A stretch of DNA of 64,000 nucleotides from Pyrodictiaceae archaeon (GCA_027036135.1 JALVSY010000030.1:192001-256000), one strand, 5' to 3'. Positions 33,459-44,668 are shown, counted from the first letter of the stretch. The notes: a model not told the origin generated them from the letters alone. A program made the numbers and translations.

Positions 33459-34391
33459 TTGAGGAGGGATTGGCTCGTGCTCGGCAAGCCCGCTGCGAGG
33501 ATCCTAGCTGCCTCCGTGTTGTTCCTGCTAGGATTCCTCCTTGGCTCCAGAAGGGCTGGCGCTAGCGTAGCATCCGTGTTGTCTAAGCTACTACTCTACC
33601 TAGTGATCCCGGCAATAATAATCTATAAGACAATGTATAGCTCCGTAAATATAGTCGCGTCGTACGCCGTCCTCGTCACCGCTATATTCTTCGCAACCGT
33701 TGGGACAGCTTACACATTGATACCGAAAATACTGGGAGAGTACCCCGGCCAAGTCATCGGGGCAGCAGTGTTGGCAGCGGGGATACACAACGCTGGGTTT
33801 CTCCCCATACCACTAATGCTCATACTCTACGGCGACGCGGGGCCAGCAGCCCTCTATGCTACGCTATCAAGCAGCTACGCAGCCATAGTGGTACCCATAA
33901 TAATCAGTAGGTTCGCCCAGGAGAAGAGAGGCACAATTCACATAGCCCGCTCAGTGCTCACCTATCCACCCTTCATCGCCCTGCTACTAGGAGTCTCACT
34001 AAGACTAGCAGGCGGCCCAGACCTACTCAGCGCAAGCACGATGAGCGACATCTATGTATTGTCCGCCGACGCGACGCTCCTAAGCTTCTACCTCGTTGGC
34101 GCAAGCCTCCGACAAAGCGGAATAGGGCTAGACAAGCCAGTAACAGTTATCGCTCTCTGGAGATTAGTAGTAGAGCCAACAATAGCACTCACTACATTAG
34201 CACTACTAGGCAGCGGCATCAAGGGGCTCTGGAGACAAGGCATAGTACTCGAGTCCTTCATGCCATCAGCAACAATGAACATAGTGGTATCAATGATATA
34301 TGGCCTAGACTACAAGACAGTCGCGAAATCCATAGGACTAGTAACACCGATATCAATAACCATAGCAACAATACTAGCACTAGACCACTAA
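33459..34391 (+). CDS. AEC (auxin efflux carrier)-family transporter
   Basis: About 10 TMs, NAGFLPIP, PPFIA and MPSA. Confidence 0.85.
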   Translation: MRRDWLVLGKPAARILAASVLFLLGFLLGSRRAGASVASVLSKLLLYLVIPAIIIYKTMYSSVNIVASYAVLVTAIFFATVGTAYTLIPKILGEYPGQVIGAAVLAAGIHNAGFLPIPLMLILYGDAGPAALYATLSSSYAAIVVPIIISRFAQEKRGTIHIARSVLTYPPFIALLLGVSLRLAGGPDLLSASTMSDIYVLSADATLLSFYLVGASLRQSGIGLDKPVTVIALWRLVVEPTIALTTLALLGSGIKGLWRQGIVLESFMPSATMNIVVSMIYGLDYKTVAKSIGLVTPISITIATILALDH

Positions 34392-34424
34392 ATCCACGCA
34401 CTATGGAAGCTTCTCACACGATCA

Positions 34425-35198
34425 CTAAGTTACTAGGACTGCCTCCCGGCTACAATAAAGCCTCGGAGGATACATCTCGCCAAGACCCCTCGAAACATAC
34501 ATGACATTACCCCTTAGGCGGTAAAGACCCCACCTATACCCATAAACACTGTTAGTCGCGATACTAATGCTTCCCGGTAAACAGACTTGGCCACCATGGG
34601 TATGGCCAGCAAGCAGCGAAGCACCGTGCTTCCCCAGGTAGGGAAAAGCGTCAGGAGAATGAGAGACGAATACATCGGCGCCGCCAAGCCCTTGGAGTGC
34701 CTCCTCGTAGTCCCGGGGATTATCGCGCCAATCAAGCCCAGCAACACGGAGCCCAGCACCGTCAACAACCTCGTCGCGTAGAACCATGACACCAAGATTC
34801 TCTAGCCCGGCTATAGCCTCCCTCAACGGGAACTTGCTAGTATTCCAATACTCATGGTTACCCAGTATAGCGATAACAACCCTTGCGTTCCTTCGAAGAC
34901 CTTCTACAAGCATCCGTACAACGCTCATGTCATGTGTGCGTTCATCCCATAGGTCGCCGCCAATAATTACAATATCGGGCCCGAGCTTCTCGGCAACCCT
35001 CACCACGTAGTCTCGCTCACCACTTCTATGGACATGTATATCGGGTAAGAACAAGACCCTCCTGCCAAGACCGAAATCAAGACGAGTCATAGTAAGAGAA
35101 ACACCGTTCACTGCACCAACTGCGGTGAACCCCAACGCGCTAGCCGCTATTGCTAAGAGGAATCGTCGCCTACTAACCCGCATAGCTCTCATGCACAA
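34425..35198 (-). CDS. Metallophosphoesterase with twin-arginine signal
   Basis: SRRRFL signal, then DIH, GGD, GNHE, SHSPD and GHTHGGQ. Confidence 0.92.
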   Translation of the reverse strand: MCMRAMRVSRRRFLLAIAASALGFTAVGAVNGVSLTMTRLDFGLGRRVLFLPDIHVHRSGERDYVVRVAEKLGPDIVIIGGDLWDERTHDMSVVRMLVEGLRRNARVVIAILGNHEYWNTSKFPLREAIAGLENLGVMVLRDEVVDGAGLRVAGLDWRDNPRDYEEALQGLGGADVFVSHSPDAFPYLGKHGASLLAGHTHGGQVCLPGSISIATNSVYGYRWGLYRLRGNVMYVSRGLGEMYPPRLYCSREAVLVT

Positions 35199-35352
35199 GG
35201 AACACTAAGCTCTCAGCATAAGTGTTCCGGTCTTTTAACGCTTATTTGATAATTAATGATATTGTATATTTAGTATGGGTCTTTGTTGTAAAATGAAAAC
35301 CAGAAAAACTTAATTGATAGCTATGCGATATTAGTATCATGAAAAATGGCTA

Positions 35353-36039
35353 GTGTTTCTCATATATATTTACCTAGGTGATGAAGGTGTGTCTATCTCC
35401 GTTCGTCTTGGGTTCTTGGTTAGTTGGCTGGGAGTAGCGAAGAAGATATACCGTGATTCCGCTTCCTTTGCGTTCGCTGTTGTTTTACCCTTATCTATAG
35501 TGGCTTGGCTACTGGTTAGAGCCTATATCGGGGGCGGCTGGGAGGCTATCTGGTCCCTCCTCTCCGGGAGAGACGGGCTCGCGGCTGCTGCGGTTATAGT
35601 TCTTCTTTTGGTGATACCACTTATCCCGCTGGCTGTCGCTTGGCTCGCATCACTCGCTGGCAGGGGTAGCTATGGCTACCTCGTGGAGGATAGGCGCATC
35701 CGCCTCTTCATAATGAAGGCCTACACCGTGCCCCTCGAGGAGGCAGAGATAAGGCTCGTCCCGCTAAAAGAAGTCAAGCCGTTACCCATTAAGCACGGAG
35801 TGCATCTAAGCGGCTTCGATGCCCAGGGCCTCCACATAGGCTACACCATTCTCGCCGACGGGAACTCGGGCCACGTCTTCATCTACGAGCCAGGCGACAA
35901 GGCAATACTCATACAGTACCGCGGAAAGAGATTCGTCATAGCACACCCCGGCGTTGAGAAAGTATACGAGAAGCTACTCCAGCTCCAAGGACCCAGGCCA
36001 CGTCAATGCGGCATTTCGAGTACGGCAACACAAAGTTAA
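35353..36039 (+). CDS. Membrane protein with probable C-terminal bacterial PH-like domain
   Basis: Two TMs, then a beta-rich region (SGFDAQGLHIGY..AILIQYRGKRFVI). The domain call is by pattern only. Confidence 0.5.
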   Translation: MFLIYIYLGDEGVSISVRLGFLVSWLGVAKKIYRDSASFAFAVVLPLSIVAWLLVRAYIGGGWEAIWSLLSGRDGLAAAAVIVLLLVIPLIPLAVAWLASLAGRGSYGYLVEDRRIRLFIMKAYTVPLEEAEIRLVPLKEVKPLPIKHGVHLSGFDAQGLHIGYTILADGNSGHVFIYEPGDKAILIQYRGKRFVIAHPGVEKVYEKLLQLQGPRPRQCGISSTATQS

Positions 36040-36364
36040 AACAATGTAGCAATCCTGACTAAGAGAAAGCCTCGTGTCTTAAAGAGGCTAGACTCCAGCG
36101 CATTCATAGACTTGCTTTCTTACTTTTCAACGAGATGGATGCTAAACCGGTAGGAAAGCAAAGCATCTAAACAGGTACTAGGACTTGTGTCTATATATCA
36201 TCTTTCAATACTAAGAGCTTTGCTTGCCAATCTTTGTTGAAGGTCATATGCTATCCTCCGACCTCTATGCGTTTGTGTGATATAAGCACTTCCTTGATCC
36301 TCGCAAGATTAATTAACTAGAAGCAATGATTATGGAGGTATGTATACGAGAATAAGAATGAGAG

Positions 36365-36410
36365 TGGCGCCGCGGCCGGGATTTGAACCCGGGTCACGGG
36401 CTTGACAGGC
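36365..36410 (-). repeat. Distal att site (3' 46 nt of tRNA-Asp)
   Basis: TGGCGCCGCGGCCGGGATTTGAACCCGGGTCACGGGCTTGACAGGC, identical to 44591-44636. Confidence 0.97.
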
Positions 36411-36430
36411 TTGAGAGTATATAAACTAAC

Positions 36431-36464
36431 GTTGCATGTATGCAACTTCAATCATGCAACATAA
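36431..36464. repeat. Three RTGCAAC motifs, including the palindromic GTTGCAT-GT-ATGCAAC
   Basis: Copies at 36431-36437, 36440-36446 and 36454-36460. The same motif occurs three times inside the other end. Confidence 0.8.
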
Positions 36465-36749
36465 CTCGCTAGATTAATGAGCAATTCTGGTTCTAGTTCT
36501 TGATTCGACTGCAAAAAGGTAATGCAGCTCAATGATATTAAGTTCTGTATTAACTTTAGTCCCGGTAAACCGCATTATGCAGGTATATTTTTGTCTATAC
36601 CCTTGCCTAGACTGTGCTAAAGTTTCTACGACAATAAAATGATCGGGGGAACACGGGAAACTATACTATATCTCGTTCTTTACTACCTGTGTATATACAT
36701 CAGTTCAAAAAGCCAAATCAATTGTATACGGGAAGTATAGACTTTAGCA

Positions 36750-37298
36750 CTAATAATAGTATGTTATTGAGACTACTTGTGTAGCACCGCTGATAAAGTT
36801 GCTATTACCTACTCTAACCTCAATAGTTCCCGGGAGAACTGGGAATACTGCGCTACCCTCAGAGCCCACATAGACTTTTTGGTCAAAGGAGGTGCCATAA
36901 GAGTGATATACAACTTCTACATAAGTCTTATCTGTTGTTGATGAGTGCACTGTAACCACTATGTAGCCGGCGTAGTTGATGTGGAATCTCCAGTACATAT
37001 AGGAGGAGGCTGGCTCATTAATAGTCTCGTGGCTCACTAGTGTCTTTGAGAGCCTTAGATTAACTATATCCTCTAGCCGAGATAATTGGTTTTGGCAAGC
37101 GTTAAGCTCTCTTTGCAAGGCACTGATCTGGGACTCAAGATCGCTAGTTGATCTTGCACCAACCGTTTGACTTATTTCGTTTAGCTTAGACTTGTAGTGG
37201 TAGTAGGTGTATCCCCATCCTATAGCCATTAAGACTATGATAGTGACTAGAGCCATTACTGCTGCGGACTTATTAGCGGAGGGAATGCTCTCCGCCAA
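36750..37298 (-). CDS. Membrane-anchored coiled-coil protein with beta-rich C-terminal domain (element cargo)
   Basis: N-terminal TM, heptad segment LESQISALQRELNACQNQLSRL and an aromatic beta-rich tail. Confidence 0.75.
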   Translation of the reverse strand: MAESIPSANKSAAVMALVTIIVLMAIGWGYTYYHYKSKLNEISQTVGARSTSDLESQISALQRELNACQNQLSRLEDIVNLRLSKTLVSHETINEPASSYMYWRFHINYAGYIVVTVHSSTTDKTYVEVVYHSYGTSFDQKVYVGSEGSAVFPVLPGTIEVRVGNSNFISGATQVVSITYYY

Positions 37299-37425
37299 GT
37301 CCGCAGCACCATAGTCAATATTCCTAATATTTCATTATATAAGACTTATGTAATGTACTACCAAGTCTCGGTGTTAAGGAATAGAGTCAAAGTTATACCT
37401 GGTACTTAACTGAAGGAAGGAAATT

Positions 37426-37850
37426 CTACCTAGCACGTGTGGGCATTTTTAGTAACGCTTCTCTTAGCTGTACCATTAAGTCATAGACGTTACTACTACC
37501 TCTTAACTCTATCTTGCCGCCAGGGTAATATATAATCATTTTGTATCTGTTCAGCCAGCCATAGATAGCTATTGCTAGTCCTATTACGAAGAATACTATG
37601 AACACTATTGGGCCTAGTTCCGCGCTCAAGTTTATCCCTGCAATGTTGAGAAGCAGGGGAGCAAGGGCTATGAGGAGCCCTGCAAGCACCAGGTCCAGTG
37701 ATTCCGCTAGTTCAACTGAGTATATTGCTTCGAGGAGTATGTCGCGGATCCATTCACCTTTATGATTATTAGGCGTAGATTTGTTATGGTGTATAGGGTG
37801 CCTTTAATTCCTCCTTGCCAGATCTTTTTCTCGCCCTCGGCGAGAACCAA
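37426..37850 (-). pseudogene. Frameshifted PH-domain-like membrane protein
   Basis: TTG 37850 reads MVLAEGEKKIWQGGIKGTLYTITNLRLIIIK. The -1 frame continues GEWIRDILLEAIYSVEL into ORF 37426-37689. Confidence 0.7.
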
Positions 37851-37938
37851 GACTAGCACCCATTATTAGTGTGTCAAGAAGGACAGACTTCTATCTAGCT
37901 CCCAGACTGGTCATAGAGTTCGGCTAGGGGATGGAGCC

Positions 37939-39183
37939 TCATCTCGTTACCGCCTCTTTCTTGCCCCGCTTAATCTCTTCGAAGAACCGTTCCCTGATCT
38001 CCTCGGGTACGTGGGCTCTCGCATAGGTGTAGGTTACTGGGTTCCTATCCCAGCCACATCCGAGGCACAAGTCGTGCTGCTTCATCCGCCTACAGCTAGG
38101 CATTAACCAGTTCCGCCTAGCGCCACGCAACCCATAGGCATACTCGACCTGGTACCTCGTAACCCTCTCATTGTAATCTCTAGCATGTTTGGCGAAGAAC
38201 CCTATCACTTGCTCCTTGTCGAAACCGACCCACTTCAGGTACCAGACAAGGGCCAAGCGAGCATAGTGGTCAACATCACCACTCCTAACCATGGTCTCGA
38301 TAATGTTCCTGATACAGGGCGGCACGGCCTCGCTCCCAGCCAGCTCCTCGATGCTCCTGGGTAGGGGCTTCTTTGGCCCCCTGGTTGCCCTGGGCCTTGG
38401 TCGTAGCAGCTTGGGTCTAGGCATATCTACCTCAATCCTATAGACTGTGACTTCCCCAGGGTCTAGTGGGTTGAACATGCTCCAGTCGAAGTCCTCGGCC
38501 CCAAACCTCGGCTCTATGGGCTTTGCAAAGCCCTTATGACCCTTATTGTTCCTATTAGCGGAACAGTCATCCTTGACATTGTAAGTAAAAGGTGGCCTCG
38601 ATGGGTGCTTTGCATCATTGAACATGCTTGGATCCACTAGGGGTTTCCCGCTGCACTTTATCTGGGTGTAGCGGTAGGGCTGTATCAGGCTCCTAGCTAG
38701 TAGGACGTAGCCCTCGTAGTCCGTGGGCTTCTTGAGCGGGATAACGAGTCTTGCACCCTTACACCCGGTCACATACACTAATGGGTCTACCTGGTACCGC
38801 TCCCTAAGGCTCCTCGCAAACTCTAGTGCACGGCTCACAGCCAGCTCTGGGTCGTCTTTGCAGTCGAAATCGTATTGCACAGTATCATAGACCAGGTGCT
38901 CAGCCCCTAGATCAATCTCCCCAGTTACCGCTGCGAGGCTATACTCGGGGCGCACAGCACCAATACCTATGAAGAGATTAACGCTCCGAAACCTAGGCAT
39001 AATCACTTGATCCAAGAGGAGCTCAAAGCCCTGGACAAAGAATACCCGTCTAACCTTAACCCTTGCCCTACGAGGATCACCAATACTATAGAAGACTTCG
39101 CGAGCCTCACCAATCCCAAGAGGCCCCCTAAACCACTTCACCAAAAACTCCCTTACCTTGTTTAGGCTAACCACAATAATCAC
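37939..39183 (-). CDS. Fused PriS-PriL primase (AEP domain plus Fe-S PriL C-terminal domain)
   Basis: AEP motifs YDFD, TGCKGAR and D...SRPPFTYN. PriL-CTD motifs PPC..HYAR..DYNERVTRYQV..PSC..LC.GC..NP. Confidence 0.85.
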   Translation of the reverse strand: MIIVVSLNKVREFLVKWFRGPLGIGEAREVFYSIGDPRRARVKVRRVFFVQGFELLLDQVIMPRFRSVNLFIGIGAVRPEYSLAAVTGEIDLGAEHLVYDTVQYDFDCKDDPELAVSRALEFARSLRERYQVDPLVYVTGCKGARLVIPLKKPTDYEGYVLLARSLIQPYRYTQIKCSGKPLVDPSMFNDAKHPSRPPFTYNVKDDCSANRNNKGHKGFAKPIEPRFGAEDFDWSMFNPLDPGEVTVYRIEVDMPRPKLLRPRPRATRGPKKPLPRSIEELAGSEAVPPCIRNIIETMVRSGDVDHYARLALVWYLKWVGFDKEQVIGFFAKHARDYNERVTRYQVEYAYGLRGARRNWLMPSCRRMKQHDLCLGCGWDRNPVTYTYARAHVPEEIRERFFEEIKRGKKEAVTR

Positions 39184-40994
39184 CCTTGAAGTTCTTCTCG
39201 TGATCTGACTAGATACTTGTCAATAACCTTGGCATATTTCTCGCTGACATAGGGCCTCTCGGTATCCTCAAGCACTCCTACGTGGTAGAGAACCTTCACA
39301 AGCCTGTTGATCGTTGATGGGCTCAGTTTGAGTTTCCTTGCCAACTCTCTTTGGGTTATATCAGGTTCCTCTACAAGCTTGACCACTATATCGCCTAGAG
39401 TCTTAGACGAGGAGCCCAGAGCAAGCTTTGCAGCAAGCCTCATAGCGTGATCATCTATCGTTGGAAGCCCGATTATTCGTGGAACCTGACGTATCAACGT
39501 GTTAGCTTTGACAAAGAGTGAAAGCTGCATACGCGACCTTATCGGGGTATCAGTCTGTGTAACCTCTATATCTTCCGCCCACCGGCCCCGCCCATCATCG
39601 CTTTCCTCATAGTAACGTTTTCTATGAAAAGCTACCCGTAACTTAGCGAGAAGGGTTGCTAGCACATCGAGTTCATCGCTCTTTTCAGGTAGCATTGTGG
39701 CCTTATACAAGTCATCCCTCGTTATTGATTCAAGAGCAGTTGTGAGCATAGTTGAAAGCATGCTCCTTAGCCAGATCATAAGTTTCTGAGCAGCAGGTCT
39801 CTCCAACAATAAAGCTATACGAATGGCATCTTCATCCCTAAGCTGGTAACGATAAATAAGCCATCTAGACCCATAAGCTATCATGGGACCTAAGAACTTA
39901 TTTTCATAAGTCTCAACAGTCATGTTACCGACTATGACGGTATCCACGGGAGAGGATCGTGCACCCTGTGCAGTATCCCTTCTGAAATAGCCATCATAAA
40001 CGCTCTCAAGCAGCGAAAGTATCCTTCTTGCCTCTTTTTCATCCTTTTCCGCTATTGAGCTAAGAGTCGGGAATAGTGTGACTCTGCCATGCATTTGCTC
40101 CACAAGGGCAGGCTTATCGGGCTCTGCAGGCGAAAAACTCGCATAAGTAACATCCCCCAAGCTGAGAACATACACAGAGTCTTTGATCAGTCCCGTAAAG
40201 GTTGTCTTGAGGGCACTTGGTGGCGCAACTACTAGCACCCATAGTGGGCGAGGTTGAACTAGGCCCCTTCTCCTCTCAACCACACGTAGTGTTAAGGCGC
40301 TAGTAATAGTTGTCTCTACTAAGTCTCCTATTTCGGGAGAGAAAACAAGCCTAATGAGCCTTATTATGTCCTCTATGCTTGGCTGGCCTACTAGTCGCTC
40401 TATCATTTCTGTTAGTTCTTCTCTTAATATTTGGCGTGTTTCCACTAACAGGTTAGAGGAATCCACTAAGGAGTTGATGACCTTTCTAATATCCAATTCT
40501 TCATAAGGTACCTTGTGATGTGTTTCCACGCCATATGTTTCCACACCATATAGGCGTTCTGCGCTGGGGGAAACACTTTCAAATCTTCCCAGCTTCTTCA
40601 CAAGCAATTCCTTTATGAGTTTCTTCCTTAGAAGCGTGGACCATGAGTAAATGTATTCAAAGACCTTCTCACTTATCTCATCCACATAGCCCTTTAAGAG
40701 TTCGTCACCAATATACTCGCTGTGCGCGCGTAGTGTGTCCGCTAACTCGTTCACGTTATGCGCTTCTACCTCGAATAGTGCTTCAACATCGTTGTCATTG
40801 TAGCGCCAGAAGGTTACCCTGTAGCGGGCATCTTCCTTACTCCTCTTCATACGCCGTATCTCTATCGCGTAGTGGCCTAGGATTAGAATCATTTTCTTCT
40901 TATTTATTGCTTGTAGCTCAATCGGCAAATCTACTATTTTTGGCTTGACGATTTCAACCCTATGTTCGACACTATTGTGTGGCTGCATACTCAT
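39180..40994 (-). CDS. MCM-like AAA+ ATPase/helicase with C-terminal wHTH
   Basis: APPSALKT P-loop, LESVYDG..R, GSRW (SRF-like), TPIR and ITQRELARKLKLSPSTINRL. Start moved to ATG 40994, which has a GAGGTG RBS and follows the Cas4 stop. Confidence 0.7.
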   Translation of the reverse strand: MSMQPHNSVEHRVEIVKPKIVDLPIELQAINKKKMILILGHYAIEIRRMKRSKEDARYRVTFWRYNDNDVEALFEVEAHNVNELADTLRAHSEYIGDELLKGYVDEISEKVFEYIYSWSTLLRKKLIKELLVKKLGRFESVSPSAERLYGVETYGVETHHKVPYEELDIRKVINSLVDSSNLLVETRQILREELTEMIERLVGQPSIEDIIRLIRLVFSPEIGDLVETTITSALTLRVVERRRGLVQPRPLWVLVVAPPSALKTTFTGLIKDSVYVLSLGDVTYASFSPAEPDKPALVEQMHGRVTLFPTLSSIAEKDEKEARRILSLLESVYDGYFRRDTAQGARSSPVDTVIVGNMTVETYENKFLGPMIAYGSRWLIYRYQLRDEDAIRIALLLERPAAQKLMIWLRSMLSTMLTTALESITRDDLYKATMLPEKSDELDVLATLLAKLRVAFHRKRYYEESDDGRGRWAEDIEVTQTDTPIRSRMQLSLFVKANTLIRQVPRIIGLPTIDDHAMRLAAKLALGSSSKTLGDIVVKLVEEPDITQRELARKLKLSPSTINRLVKVLYHVGVLEDTERPYVSEKYAKVIDKYLVRSREELQG

Positions 40995-40999
40995 TGTTT

Positions 41000-41611
41000 T
41001 CACCTCTTGGCTAGGCATTGCCATTTGTATGGGCAGTGTGTGCACCATGGGCCTGGCTCTCTGGGTGGCTTTGTCCTCGTTGTTATTGCTTTGTGTAGCT
41101 TGATTGCTCTCTTTACTAGCTGGCTCCACATCCCCTTGTCTAGGCTGTGCCTGTAGACCTTGACCTCGCCGCTCCTAGCTATGTAGACTAGGTAGCCTCT
41201 CTTGGCTCTCAGCATGTAGGTGTAGGCGTTTAGTTGTAGTAGGTGGCTCCTATAGGGCTCCACTGGCAGCTTATTGGTTGTCTTGAGCTCTACGACTACT
41301 CCTTCATCGGGGTGGTAGAGGTCTGCGTGCCCCACTAGCCAGAACTCTCCCACCCTGTACCTTGCCTCGACCTCTACTAGCCATCCCTTCCCTGTTAGGA
41401 GCTCCTGTAGCTTCTCGTGAACCCCATTACCAATCAACATCACAACGTTGCTTGGGTCGAGGGCTGGGCGCGGCCAAGTACGCTCATAGTAGGCGCGTCT
41501 CAGACAGCCAGCAGCCTCACTAACATGGATCCTGTCAAGACTATAGACTCTCCTACGCTTCTCGACAAGCTCGCGGAACCAGCCATAAACAGTCTCAGCA
41601 GTAAGCAACAC
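41000..41611 (-). CDS. Solo Cas4-like PD-(D/E)xK nuclease
   Basis: VSE..CLRR.YY, G..VH, GHAD, VELKT, QL.AY and WCTHCPYKWQC (four-Cys Fe-S pattern). Confidence 0.9.
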   Translation of the reverse strand: MLLTAETVYGWFRELVEKRRRVYSLDRIHVSEAAGCLRRAYYERTWPRPALDPSNVVMLIGNGVHEKLQELLTGKGWLVEVEARYRVGEFWLVGHADLYHPDEGVVVELKTTNKLPVEPYRSHLLQLNAYTYMLRAKRGYLVYIARSGEVKVYRHSLDKGMWSQLVKRAIKLHKAITTRTKPPREPGPWCTHCPYKWQCLAKR

Positions 41612-41613
41612 AG

Positions 41614-42015
41614 CTACCGCCTCTTGAAGCCTTCTTTGAGAACCCAGTAGGGGCAGATCCCGGCAAGGCCGCAGACTGTGCCTTCGCTTTCGCAGCGGAA
41701 GCGCTGCCTACGACTACTACAGCGTTTGATGAACTCTCTCCACAATGTCTTGGGCTTCAAGGTGTACCTTACAGGGCGGCTACCATTATGCCTCTCAGCC
41801 AGCCCAAGCCTCTCCAAGAGGGCTAGGAGCTTGCCTAGCTGAGTAACCCAGTAATGATTATAGCCATAGATTGCCGCCAGATCCCTGGCCTTGACATAAA
41901 GGCTCCGCTTAGTAGAGACCACATCAATTAACAGGGACAGAGCCTTAACCATCTGCTTCTCGTTAGCAGCAGCGTTTTTTGGAGAAGAAAACGCGCCAAA
42001 AACTTGGGCTGCCAT
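41614..42015 (-). CDS. wHTH-like protein with C-terminal Cys cluster
   Basis: VKARDLA..LGKLLALLERLGL..RYTL, then C-x8-C-x6-C-x5-CPY. Confidence 0.65.
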   Translation of the reverse strand: MAAQVFGAFSSPKNAAANEKQMVKALSLLIDVVSTKRSLYVKARDLAAIYGYNHYWVTQLGKLLALLERLGLAERHNGSRPVRYTLKPKTLWREFIKRCSSRRQRFRCESEGTVCGLAGICPYWVLKEGFKRR

Positions 42016-42074
42016 CTTAGTCGTTACCTCCTCTTCTTGTTTTTGAAACCTTTGCCTAGCTTAGTTACCTAGTT

Positions 42075-42257
42075 CTAATCATCGCTGTCTATCACTAAGT
42101 AGACCTTGACCTTCTTGCCCTTGGCGTGTAGCTCGCTCCAAAGGTCATTATACATTGTGGGCAAGTAGATCTTGTAGCGCTTGGTCTCCTTTACTATACC
42201 TCTCCTGCCAAGATATAATGATGTAGCTCTAACAATTAGGCTTGAATCGGTACTCAT
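42075..42257 (-). CDS. Small AbrB/SpoVT-like DNA-binding protein
   Basis: 60 aa with RYKIYLP..NDLW..L..KKVKVYL. First gene of the replication operon. Confidence 0.55.
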   Translation of the reverse strand: MSTDSSLIVRATSLYLGRRGIVKETKRYKIYLPTMYNDLWSELHAKGKKVKVYLVIDSDD

Positions 42258-42325
42258 GTGCTACACACCGTGTATATGATTATGTGAGCACGAAAATAGG
42301 GATTTCTAGAACCTTTTTTATTCTG

Positions 42326-42339
42326 TGTATCCGGATACA
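42326..42339. promoter_or_regulatory. Palindrome TGTATCCGGATACA, candidate operator
   Basis: Perfect 14-bp inverted repeat between divergent regulator genes. Confidence 0.5.
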
Positions 42340-42363
42340 GGCACATAGAGGAGGTCTGCGAAA

Positions 42364-43221
42364 ATGGGGGATTCTGAACCCAGGTCTATAGAACTGTTGA
42401 GAGAATTTAGCGAACTAATACCTCAATTCAGAGAATTCGTTGAAAATATTGTTACTAATGTATTGAGTATGTCTTACCAGGAGGGTGTGGTCTATATGAG
42501 TATTGCTGGTCTCAGCGATATCACGCAGAGCAATGTTATTAGTGTGCTTAAAGCGAAGCTTGGAATCGATGAAGGAAGAGCTAGATATATTCTCCGAAGG
42601 CTTGCAGAGTATGGTCTTATTGATAGAAAGGAGATAAAAGGTAAACAAGGCCGTACTTATCTCTTATCTGCGCCTAGTTGGCGTCTAAGACTTGTTCTAG
42701 CGCTAGTGTGCTCCCCGAGCTTAATATCGATCACCTTGCTTCCCCTATGCGAAGAACTAGTAATGCTTGGCACGGATGAGCAATGGGAGAACGGCTTACC
42801 AAAAATACGCCACCTCTACTTACAATACATCAAGCTTGTCCTCAATAACCTATCTGCGCAGAGACAAGGTGACGTAGATAATAGGGCCAGGAAAAAACGT
42901 TCCACGTCATTCTCTTCTATAAGAATGCCAGGCCTCCTCGCTGTAGCTCAATATATAGACTTTGTCACGGCCTTACTAGCGGCCAAGATTCTTATTCCGG
43001 GTAACCAGTTCAGCAGCCTAGTAAATGAGCTAAGAAGATATAACGAGAACGACGTTGCAGACCTATTTAACTATGCTCGTGAGTCTAAATCCCTAGCCAA
43101 GTTCATTGAAGGACACGAGGATCCGTGCAAGCTCTTACTAGCCATAAAATCATCAATCACCTTGTCGCCAAGTCACATGCTCCTAGTACGAAAACTCCTC
43201 AAGAAGCAAACAGTAAATTAA
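42364..43221 (+). CDS. wHTH-containing protein, candidate element regulator
   Basis: LGIDEGRARYILRRLAEYGLI..GRTYLL and a GGAGGT RBS. The C-terminal domain is not recognised. Confidence 0.65.
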   Translation: MGDSEPRSIELLREFSELIPQFREFVENIVTNVLSMSYQEGVVYMSIAGLSDITQSNVISVLKAKLGIDEGRARYILRRLAEYGLIDRKEIKGKQGRTYLLSAPSWRLRLVLALVCSPSLISITLLPLCEELVMLGTDEQWENGLPKIRHLYLQYIKLVLNNLSAQRQGDVDNRARKKRSTSFSSIRMPGLLAVAQYIDFVTALLAAKILIPGNQFSSLVNELRRYNENDVADLFNYARESKSLAKFIEGHEDPCKLLLAIKSSITLSPSHMLLVRKLLKKQTVN

Positions 43222-44623
43222 AGATATGCAAAATATATTTTTGATATTTTTCGTCTGTTTCTCCTAATAGGTCGCTGTATCTTCTCTCGCTTACCCTGAG
43301 TTCTCCGAAGCGGCTCTGGGCGAAGGCTGCTGCTTCGTAGCCCATTGTCTTCCTCATAAGCTGCCACGCTATCTTCCTGAGGTACTTCGGCCTTATTAGG
43401 CCGTGTCTTTTAGCGTACCTCGTGACTAGCTCGCGTCTGAGCTGCTTGCTTAGGAGCTCCGTCTCTCTTAGTAGCTCTAGTGTCTCCTTTGCGAGGTATA
43501 GCCATTCGCAGGGCTTGTTCCCCTCTCTCAGGCCTAGGTAGTAGCGGCAGAACCCCTGCTCGGGGCAGACTAGCCTAGGGGTGAACCCGTAGCCAGGGAT
43601 CTCTACCTGCTCCTCTGGCCGCCACACAGCTAGCATCCTGAGAGCATGCTCCAGCCTTGCACCACTCTCTAGCATTAGGCGGTAGAGCGCGTAGTAGCCC
43701 CGGTGGTTCTGTCTTAGATGTTCAAGGGTCTTCCTCAGCTCTTCTAGGTTGATGGGGTAGACTCTTATGTCTAGCTTGTAGCTCCTAGAGGGCACTACTT
43801 CTAGTATCCATGCCATTGTTTCTCCGCTTATCCTTCTCTTGTGGTATAGGTAGCGAATGTAGTGCCTAAACACATTGCGTAGCCAGCCGTTTTTGTGTCT
43901 AGCGATTTGCTCTACTAGTTCCTCGCTGAGCTCCTTGCCTTCTAGCTCGCGTTTGAAGAGGTTGCGGTACTTCCTTAGCTGCTCCTCTGTCAATACCTTT
44001 CTGCGCTTCTTCCTCTCCCGCAGGTAGTGCTCGAAGTCCTCGCTCCACTCTAGCTTGACGCCCGCTAGGGATAGGCCGAGCATCTTCTTGAGGTCCTCTC
44101 TGAACTCCTGGGCAACGAAGCGGAGAATAGCGTTCTTCAAGTACTCATCGTTCTTAGCGAGCGCCAAGACCTCTAAGGCCAACCCGTAGTCTATGCCGCC
44201 GTCCTCGCCTAGTATGCCCAGAGCCCTAAGCCTATCAGAGGCAGCAACCAGGCTCTCGAACTCACTCCTAGAGACAAGCCCAGAGGAGAAGAGTCTGAGG
44301 AAGCGCTCGTCTGGTACCTCTAGCCTCTTGTTCAGGTAGCGGTTGAGAGTATACCTACTAACACCCAGGGCCTCGAGGACACGCCTCTGCCCATACTTCT
44401 CTACAGCATAGCGCAGAACCCTGAGCTTGGTCCCAGGGTCTAGCCTAGAGGGGTCTAGCTGAGAGTACCAACCCACGCCCAGGAACCCGTGATAAGCGGG
44501 ATGGATTCTCATACTTATGTTGCACGGCTGAGACATGAACCATGCAACGTAGAGTTGCACGAGGAGTTGATAGGAGAGGCGTTGAGGATTTGGCGCCGCG
44601 GCCGGGATTTGAACCCGGGTCAC
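43199..44623 (-). CDS. int: Tyrosine integrase (SSV1-type catalytic signature) with N-terminal HTH
   Basis: SGAR, KYLRK, QSR and RRY give R..KxxR..R..Y. The HTH is LEALGVSRYTLNRYL. The ORF is open into the tRNA, and an alternative start is GTG 44476. Confidence 0.92.
   Translation of the reverse strand: MTRVQIPAAAPNPQRLSYQLLVQLYVAWFMSQPCNISMRIHPAYHGFLGVGWYSQLDPSRLDPGTKLRVLRYAVEKYGQRRVLEALGVSRYTLNRYLNKRLEVPDERFLRLFSSGLVSRSEFESLVAASDRLRALGILGEDGGIDYGLALEVLALAKNDEYLKNAILRFVAQEFREDLKKMLGLSLAGVKLEWSEDFEHYLRERKKRRKVLTEEQLRKYRNLFKRELEGKELSEELVEQIARHKNGWLRNVFRHYIRYLYHKRRISGETMAWILEVVPSRSYKLDIRVYPINLEELRKTLEHLRQNHRGYYALYRLMLESGARLEHALRMLAVWRPEEQVEIPGYGFTPRLVCPEQGFCRYYLGLREGNKPCEWLYLAKETLELLRETELLSKQLRRELVTRYAKRHGLIRPKYLRKIAWQLMRKTMGYEAAAFAQSRFGELRVSERRYSDLLGETDEKYQKYILHIFNLLFAS
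44515..44560. repeat. Three RTGCAAC motifs inside the tRNA-proximal end
   Basis: TTATGTTGCAC 44515-44525, ATGCAACGT 44542-44550 and GTTGCAC 44554-44560. Confidence 0.8.
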
Positions 44624-44668
44624 GGGCTTGACAGGCCCGCATACTAGGCCAGGCTATACTACCGCGGC
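44591..44668 (-). tRNA. tRNA-Asp(GTC), integration target
   Basis: Anticodon arm CGGGC-CTGTCAA-GCCCG and encoded CCA. Confidence 0.97.

Follow-up and report, generated by a model that had tools for sequence, protein, structure and literature searches.

What occupies the tRNA-Asp gene in a stretch of 64,000 nucleotides from a Pyrodictiaceae archaeon (GCA_027036135.1, JALVSY010000030.1:192001-256000; this whole stretch is hereafter called the window), and does it carry the means for its own replication? The segment in question, 8.2 kb between two att repeats, holds an integrase gene and a minus-strand operon that includes genes for a Cas4-family nuclease, an ATPase and a primase. It is probably an integrative, non-conjugative, cryptic plasmid-like replicon of an undescribed family, resident in the tRNA-Asp gene of a hydrothermal-vent archaeon. 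This reading is carried by the boundaries of the element, the families of its integrase, Cas4 protein and primase, the AAA+ nature of its ATPase, the conservation of the replication module in other loci, and the absence of the element from a related genome.

Boundaries of the element and its integrase

The ends of the element, its target gene and the features close to both ends are the following.

36365-36410, no strand given: attL, a 46-bp copy of the 3' part of tRNA-Asp
36431-36460, just inside attL: three ATGCAAC heptamers, one of them inverted, making a palindrome
43199-44536, minus strand: tyrosine integrase, SSV/archaeal family; the open reading frame (ORF) stays open to 44623, inside att
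44542-44548, just inside attR: a fourth ATGCAAC heptamer
44591-44636: attR, an exact repeat of attL, within tRNA-Asp
44591-44668, minus strand: tRNA-Asp(GTC), the integration target, found by ARAGORN

The two att copies form an exact 46-nt direct repeat with a spacing of 8226 bp, the element consisting of 8180 bp plus one 46-bp att copy. Since ARAGORN places the tRNA-Asp(GTC) at 44591-44668 on the minus strand, the right-hand repeat is the 3' part of this tRNA gene. Within the window the 33-nt core of att is confined to these two places, and 100 shuffles produced no match. The G+C content is 0.41-0.44 in the left part of the element versus 0.50-0.54 in the flanks, of which the right one carries the housekeeping genes for aIF5A and SRP54 and the left one genes for a metallophosphoesterase and an unknown membrane protein. 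In the complete genome G275, from the same genus, the right flank with its tRNA-Asp is collinear with the window up to 44591 and synteny is back at 34361; between these points G275 has 2.96 kb of unrelated DNA and the window 10.2 kb. The element is absent from the tRNA-Asp site of G275. The preliminary description of this DNA had proposed an element integrated at tRNA-Asp between exact 46-bp repeats, and coordinates, spacing, shuffle test, tRNA position and the comparison with G275 all bear this out.

Variation around tRNA-Asp goes beyond the element: the piece from the synteny break to attL (34362-36364), with the metallophosphoesterase gene and that of a 228-residue membrane protein, is not found at the G275 site. 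None of the four other genomes from the genus, and none of 28 others from the family, yielded a relative of the element's ATPase. In a further genome of the same genus, G276, an integrase with 76% identity adjoins the tRNA-Asp, and the contig ends there.

The integrase, the presence of which had been noted earlier, is matched as a 474-residue ORF by PF16795 (E 2e-20, 73.7 bits against a cut-off of 27, residues 291-464) and by phrog_5127. The ORF extends 33 nt into att. No N-terminal integrase fragment lies at the attL side, where the frame upstream of attL has stops, and a paralogue on contig C2 of the same genome (45% identical, beside a tRNA-Ser) has a stop between the tRNA-encoded part and the region of the conserved start; on these two grounds the real start is read as probably M30 (44536) or M38 (44512). 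In the classical SSV case attP lies inside the integrase gene, and integration splits the gene in two. A split integrase of this type was considered here and rejected, the whole catalytic ORF lying at the attR side and the gene being intact. As for the ATGCAAC heptamers, four of the nine matches in the window fall within 60 bp of the att core, and they may be integrase arm sites or origin repeats.

Related sequences occur elsewhere in the same genome. Beside a tRNA-Glu(CTC), a 171-bp stretch (G000:C30:310006-310221), the translation of which is 95% identical to codons 1-57 of the integrase ORF, looks like the remnant of a related element, and the 5.5-kb contig C28 has at its start the C-terminal part of an integrase with 91% identity. 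Neither an ATPase nor a primase of the kind described below is present on contigs C2, C28 and C32.

The proposed replication operon and its occurrence elsewhere

The operon runs on the minus strand, its first gene being the one with the highest coordinates.

42075-42257, minus strand: 60-residue protein, first gene of the operon
41614-42015, minus strand: 133-residue protein with a C-terminal four-Cys cluster
41000-41611, minus strand: Cas4-family PD-(D/E)xK nuclease with four Cys
39180-40994 (ORF open to 41129), minus strand: 604-residue AAA+ ATPase with a C-terminal winged helix-turn-helix (wHTH), its gene overlapping the primase gene by 4 bp
37939-39183, minus strand: fused primase of 414 residues, N-terminal AEP part and C-terminal Fe-S domain of PriL

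The order is thus 60-residue protein, 133-residue Cys-rich protein, Cas4, ATPase and primase, with gaps of 59, 2, 5 and -4 bp. The ORF list returns the same gap values as the preliminary description, and the four-Cys clusters counted there in three of the five products (Cas4, primase and the 133-residue protein) can be read from the sequence.

The core of the ATPase belongs to no family in Pfam, PHROG, NCBIfam or PADLOC. PF00493 (MCM) matches three other places in the genome and not the ATPase gene, PF13148 (DUF3987) does not match the ATPase in its own genome or by hmmscan, and for PF19263 and the superfamily 3 (SF3) helicases (DUF5906/D5-like) there is no Pfam match to the window ATPase. The wHTH is recognized by PF13412 with E 1e-7, at residues 540-569 of the 604-residue form, equal to 585-614 of the 649-residue ORF form. 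An exhaustive HMMER search with the ATPase gave 191 representatives at E up to 0.001, 17 of them below 1e-30 and none covered by Pfam or PHROGs; 11 of 25 scanned distant relatives carry an N-terminal Prim-Pol, Toprim, RepB-primase, PriCT-1 or DUF3854 domain, and many have a C-terminal wHTH. Walker A takes the form GxPSSxKT (APPSALKT in the window) with a nearly invariant K263, and D334, G335, T359, R377 and R486 are invariant in the alignment.

Compared by hhalign, the broad ATPase profile reaches 85% with RFC (P 6e-6, 170 columns) and 10% with MCM (P 0.003, 117 columns), and aligns with Orc1/Cdc6 through the wHTH only; as a control, MCM against RFC gives 87%. A permissive alignment to MCM brings Walker A, sensor 1, an SRF-type arginine finger, sensor 2 and the winged helix into collinear order. 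By these profile comparisons the window ATPase is an AAA+ protein, for which the label MCM-like, used in the preliminary description, fits the layout and not the membership: neither PF00493 nor the 10% obtained against MCM, next to 85% against RFC, upholds it. Membership in MCM from the close resemblance of motifs was dropped as being without statistical support. The 604-residue protein is predicted to be a replicative helicase or initiator.

The primase shows a clear PriL signature: residues 284-377 match PF04104 (PriL) with 68.6 bits and E 7e-19 at profile positions 105-205 of 266, and over 103-125 residues the protein shares about 36-37% identity with the PriL of the host. A tblastn search with the primase against its own genome recovered the host PriL and no PriS. 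In an alignment of 29 relatives, D105, D107, G140, G143, D184, R196, P198 and T200 are invariant in the AEP part, as are C290, C364 and C373 among the cysteines, with C376 nearly so. Against the PDB, the family profile ranks PriL C-terminal domains first (E 3.6e-10), followed by the archaeal non-homologous end joining (NHEJ) polymerase 5dmu (E 6.7e-6) and the LigD polymerase domain 2iru (E 0.011), with Sulfolobus PriS (1zt2, E 0.033) behind the NHEJ polymerases. Because of this ranking, and because the PriL match starts at profile position 105, the primase is a generic AEP joined to the Fe-S domain of PriL, and not PriS joined to the whole of PriL. Of the PriS-PriL fusion proposed earlier, the C-terminal PriL domain stands; a PriS-specific catalytic part and the N-terminal domain of PriL do not. 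The family comprises 76 protein clusters in a large protein collection, which are unnamed, 'hypothetical' or automatically named and come from metagenome-assembled genomes labelled Staphylothermus, Thermosphaera, Zestosphaera or Thermoprotei. In G210 (L134, G210:C8) the AEP and PriL parts are two adjacent ORFs, and in G340 (L130, G340:C83) and on G166:C76 the primase frame is interrupted by in-frame TAG codons; gene splitting, decay and errors of sequencing are all possible explanations.

Cas4 matches TIGR00372 with 67.6 bits against a cut-off of 65, PF01930 with 30.2 against 22.7, and phrog_1706 at 5.6e-36; D97, E108 and K110, together with C36, C190, C193 and C199, were read from the sequence. 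By the curated cut-off, the PD-(D/E)xK residues and the four Cys, this gene is a cas4 gene and its product a predicted nuclease, in agreement with the earlier Cas4-like assignment. The protein is 32% identical to the chromosomal Cas4 on contig C7. Neither cas1, cas2 nor any other cas gene was found within the element by Pfam and PADLOC, and none of the 11 CRISPR arrays in the genome is close by, all being on other contigs or at a great distance.

The two small upstream genes did not keep the names they had been given. The 133-residue protein, described as a wHTH protein, has no family match, wHTH families included; its four Cys lie within the last 35 residues and are retained in the L016 homologue, and its homologues stand directly upstream of Cas4 in L016, L127, L128, L131 and L135 and adjoin the ATPase in L126. 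The 60-residue protein, described as AbrB-like, matches no family at E up to 5, PF04014 (AbrB/SpoVT-MazE) included; it is a probable small regulator. A different small protein in the same position in L010 does match PF04014 (8.8e-5), with a BLASTP E of 0.96 against the 60-residue protein. Homologues of the latter occur in L017, L024, L132 and L134, and in the same genome on contigs C32 (98%) and C28 (67%).

Whether these genes belong together was followed in two sets of loci. The ATPase-anchored set has 20 members, namely the window, two of the 351 genomes of the class (G208, G211) and 17 metagenome contigs. The primase lies directly downstream of the ATPase in all 17 loci that have downstream DNA, the window included, and in the three loci that show no primase the sequence breaks off at the end of the contig. 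Eleven of the 20 loci contain Cas4, nine of them directly upstream of the ATPase, and five contain an integrase of the same family. One relative, L015, is a circular contig of 14.5 kb with a 42-nt terminal overlap and an integrase gene spanning the ends. Profile scans of genome contigs and viral contigs with the ATPase alignment gave no confirmed relative, and a protein homology search recovered three relatives of the ATPase, a number kept low by its word filter.

The primase profile finds the full-length fused primase in 11 of the 351 class genomes; about a dozen further genomes have AEP-only relatives, which end in other C-termini. The primase-anchored set consists of ten loci, from all eight other class genomes with the full-length primase plus G210 and G127; nine of the ten have a P-loop ORF immediately upstream of the primase. 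This ORF is a DUF5906 (SF3) protein in six (twice with D5_N, one of the six below the cut-off) and DUF3631-like in three, of which two were scanned and fell below the cut-off, the third differing very little from one of these two. Seven of the ten loci also encode the first ~110 residues of the window ATPase family (hidden Markov model E 3e-10 to 3e-4, 405 ORFs). When this N-terminal domain is compared by hhalign, the SF3 group comes out at 94% (P 1.5e-7) and the DUF3631-like group at 69%; of the cores, only Walker A aligns, with 22 columns for the SF3 group. That one motor can take the place of another behind a common N-terminal domain speaks most strongly for the window ATPase as the replicative helicase. 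The order Cys-rich protein, Cas4, P-loop ATPase and primase is found in L127, L128, L131 and L135, all four reached through the primase alone. The genes of the module do co-occur in other elements, contrary to the first condition under which the preliminary description would have been refuted, both in the adjacency of ATPase and primase and the frequency of Cas4 in the first set and in the gene order of the second. In L129 (G341:C5) the shared N-terminal domain is a separate ORF of 251 residues, directly followed by an SF3 ATPase of 390 residues, as if, by its sequence, a helicase had been split at the domain border.

The same associations bear on the proposal that the Cas4, ATPase and primase genes form a defence or DNA-repair island and not a replicon. 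Cas4 is a nuclease family of CRISPR adaptation, and there is a demonstrated role in repair for a primase-polymerase whose neighbour is a helicase (PMC11724360). Nevertheless, apart from Cas4 and matches to wHTH families PADLOC yields nothing, the module is found together with integrases and on a circular contig, and the ATPase slot holds SF3 helicases of replicative type in sister elements, all of which renders an island of this kind very improbable.

Mobility, cargo and competing readings

For the plasmid-like replicon the following course can be envisaged. An SSV-family tyrosine integrase, its gene intact beside att, would have inserted the element into the 3' part of tRNA-Asp(GTC). The backbone would be the replication operon of small regulator, Cys-rich protein, Cas4, AAA+ ATPase with wHTH and fused primase, and the excised circle would be replicated by its own initiator-helicase, the wHTH binding the origin, the AAA+ motor unwinding the DNA and the N-terminal domain tying the motor into the module, perhaps by docking on the primase. 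Primers from the single-chain primase would be extended by host polymerases, and Cas4 might process DNA ends or flaps in replication or recombination restart. Cas4 belongs to a family of 5'-3' exonucleases.

Several results weigh against this course. Cas4 is missing from 9 of the 20 ATPase-anchored loci, 3 to 4 of them cut upstream, and from 5 of the 10 primase-anchored loci. The replicon thus does not require Cas4, and recombination-coupled replication, suggested in the preliminary description, would be a conjecture for a family that does not carry Cas4 throughout. Since the ATPase served to select the 17 metagenome loci, its count there is not independent, and the set yields conditional frequencies only. 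The canonical Walker B Asp is absent in 16 of 16 close relatives of the ATPase (residues about 303-311, LFPTLS versus IIKDYT in distant, primase-fused relatives), Pro or Ser taking its place, with the Walker A Lys and the putative arginine finger retained; since this Asp is absent throughout the close family, ATP hydrolysis is not assured. The motif II His of the primase, present in most family members, is Arg in the window copy (residue 145) and its two nearest relatives, and His, or Gly or Tyr, in the others. No replication origin was identified: the ATGCAAC cluster apart, short repeats and promoter and terminator scans remained at chance. Finally, the assembled contigs of the public runs showed neither a circle junction nor a clean junction of the empty site.

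These runs are hydrothermal vent metagenomes in the form of assembled contigs, and the element was found in several vent samples, runs X2 and X3 containing it. The 8226-bp circle and the empty attB, for which the preliminary description had suggested a check, left no clean joint there. In run X5 both flanks have a depth of 12.4 and the element next to no cover, with no bridging contig; this was not counted as evidence. A joint of 36403 to 44624 in run X6 contains 28 foreign letters and has a side of 28 letters, and further joints that go back 8309 have sides of 34 and 24 letters and lie off the att register; both kinds were set aside as other tRNA genes or organisms.

The unseen circle junction and the replacement of the Walker B Asp and the motif II His would also suit an immobile remnant, that is, a former element fixed in the chromosome with its genes decaying or domesticated, all the more as related elements have left remnants in this genome, one at tRNA-Glu and others on contigs C28 and C32. 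Against this, the att copies are identical over 46 bp, all ORFs of the operon are intact with coupled starts and stops, and genomes of the same genus are without the element. The Walker B change, being common to the whole close family with the circular relative L015 included, is not decay, and a remnant is considered quite unlikely.

In a simple repeat scan the genome yielded eleven CRISPR-like arrays, with three or more types of repeat, on contigs C2, C7, C9, C36, C37 and C40; several of them lie at contig ends. The spacers of these 11 arrays have no match of at least 24 nt to the element or its relatives, and a DNA search of the 351 class genomes returned gene homologies, mostly of integrases, and no clear spacer match; the matching spacers looked for at the suggestion of the preliminary description were found in neither.

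Outside integrase and operon, the element contains four ORFs.

36750-37298, minus strand: 182-residue coiled-coil protein, membrane-anchored, its beta-rich C-terminal domain conserved; cargo
37426-37689, minus strand: 87-residue hydrophobic protein, cargo, ORF only
37707-37859, minus strand: 50-residue ORF, which may not be a gene
42364-43221, plus strand: 285-residue ORF on the opposite strand, with a weak wHTH hint

The 182-residue protein matches no family above the cut-off in Pfam, PHROGs or NCBIfam; it has 43 homologue clusters, mostly on short contigs, its C-terminal domain is scattered through the class, in about 22 of 351 genomes, and the family, of which no member was found in IMG/VR, shows no linkage to the replication module. 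The 87-residue protein likewise has no family in these three collections and no linkage to the 182-residue homologues elsewhere. For the 285-residue ORF, PF13463 matches below the cut-off (E 0.009), and no relatives occur among the related loci. We infer that the membrane proteins at the left end and the 285-residue ORF are cargo. Cargo varies between the relatives as well, comprising an Hjc resolvase, methyltransferases, a type II restriction-modification fusion and large unknown proteins. The 29-kb metagenome contig L022 has the module beside a coiled-coil protein of 1615 residues, a glycosyltransferase, Hjc and a Dam-type methylase, and may be a virus using the same replication cassette.

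A small provirus or virus satellite would explain the left end differently, its membrane proteins being parts of a virion or envelope and the operon serving a viral genome. The three small hydrophobic or coiled-coil ORFs there, the name 'phage scaffolding protein' that one source automatically gives to a homologue of the 182-residue protein, a weak match to an Rz-like spanin (E 0.0011) and the large coiled-coil protein and glycosyltransferase of the 29-kb relative all point in this direction, and Cas4 genes are described as common in viruses of Desulfurococcales and Sulfolobales (PMC5704561). On the other hand, Pfam and PHROGs yield no capsid, packaging or known archaeal virion family, the ATPase family and the 182-residue family are both absent from IMG/VR contigs, the left-end genes occur in no relative of the module, and the ATPase has no tblastn match in 50,697 phage records. 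Pfam, PHROGs, NCBIfam and PADLOC together gave no capsid or conjugation family in the element, as the preliminary description had stated, and a viral origin is regarded as unlikely.

Comparison with known systems

A close parallel to the proposed replicon is offered by the pTN2-like plasmids of Thermococcales, small cryptic replicons with a helicase gene directly followed by that of a single-chain primase (PMC5862659 and PMC3973330). The primase of pTN2, PolpTN2, is likewise an AEP fused to a PriL-like Fe-S domain; PMC5862659 describes it as made up of AEP, PriCT-1, PriL-like and winged-helix parts with Gln in motif II, and its close homologues as restricted to Thermococcales. Longer members of the present primase family have a C-terminal extension in which a winged helix can be made out by eye. 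In contrast to PolpTN2, the element primase has no PriCT-1 match in Pfam, and its family has His or Arg in motif II and not Gln. No relation is detectable by hhalign, which gives 0.2% for the primase against PolpTN2 and 0.3% for the helicases, and the primase has no tblastn match in PLSDB. The element's helicase is AAA+ and its hosts are Thermoproteota, whereas pTN2 has an annotated ATP-dependent helicase. The pTN2 helicase has been described as belonging to superfamily 1. The 0.2% obtained against PolpTN2 points to an independent fusion, and the ease with which the PriL part is recognized, at about 36% identity to the host PriL, suggests a separate capture.

Along these lines a more far-reaching reading may be formulated, which we hold only tentatively and consider doubtful: the window ATPase would represent an undescribed clade of AAA+ replicative helicases, with a portable N-terminal docking domain, swappable motors, independent capture of PriL and an accessory pair of Cys-rich protein and Cas4. 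If true, this clade would join an MCM-like layout (AAA+, lid, winged helix) to a different N-terminal domain, its close family being without a canonical Walker B; the docking module would let AAA+, SF3 and DUF3631-like motors swap before one primase; the primase would owe its Fe-S domain to the host PriL, by a capture separate from that of PolpTN2; and the Cys-rich protein and Cas4 would start or rescue replication by end processing.

With pRN1-type plasmids the element shares a small archaeal replication core of primase, AAA+-type helicase and DNA-binding winged helix, and its sister elements resemble pRN1 and SF3-type elements in having DUF5906/D5_N SF3 helicases in the ATPase slot. Here, however, the genes are separate and translationally coupled, helicase then primase, and the core of the window ATPase aligns with the SF3 group at the 22-column Walker A region only. 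MCM proteins, those encoded on mobile elements included, have the AAA+ core, the helical lid and the C-terminal winged helix in common with the element's ATPase, which differs from them in lacking the MCM N-terminal OB/Zn domain and in its non-canonical Walker B. Cryptic integrated and SSV-type elements are similar in being tRNA-targeted, a few kb in size, and equipped with a tyrosine integrase of the 'phage integrase 3' kind, a replication gene or two and unknown cargo (PMC6563490); in contrast to the SSV type, the integrase gene is not split by integration, and the replication module is a different one.

As regards novelty, the ATPase has no tblastn match in the phage and plasmid collections, and the primase only a weak one of 89 residues, to ANMV-1. 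The literature searched holds no description of the cassette, although supplementary tables of PMC5862659 and PMC5704561 may list members of the primase or Cas4 group. The earlier view that the combination had not been described agrees with these searches; nor, as far as they reach, does the module map to a characterised plasmid or virus family, the second condition under which the preliminary description would have been refuted.

The element defines a recurrent, unnamed replication cassette, from which testable points arise: a second, independent fusion of an AEP with the Fe-S domain of PriL, three kinds of helicase motor exchanged behind one common N-terminal domain, and a pairing of Cas4 with a Cys-rich protein that is conserved outside CRISPR. 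To our knowledge, few replicons have been described for hyperthermophilic Thermoproteota outside Sulfolobales, and with its 8.2 kb and defined att site the element could be the basis of a vector for vent archaea. Set beside the known systems, the kind of element is a familiar one, a cryptic plasmid that integrates into a tRNA gene and carries helicase and primase, and it is the particular proteins and their combination that are undescribed.

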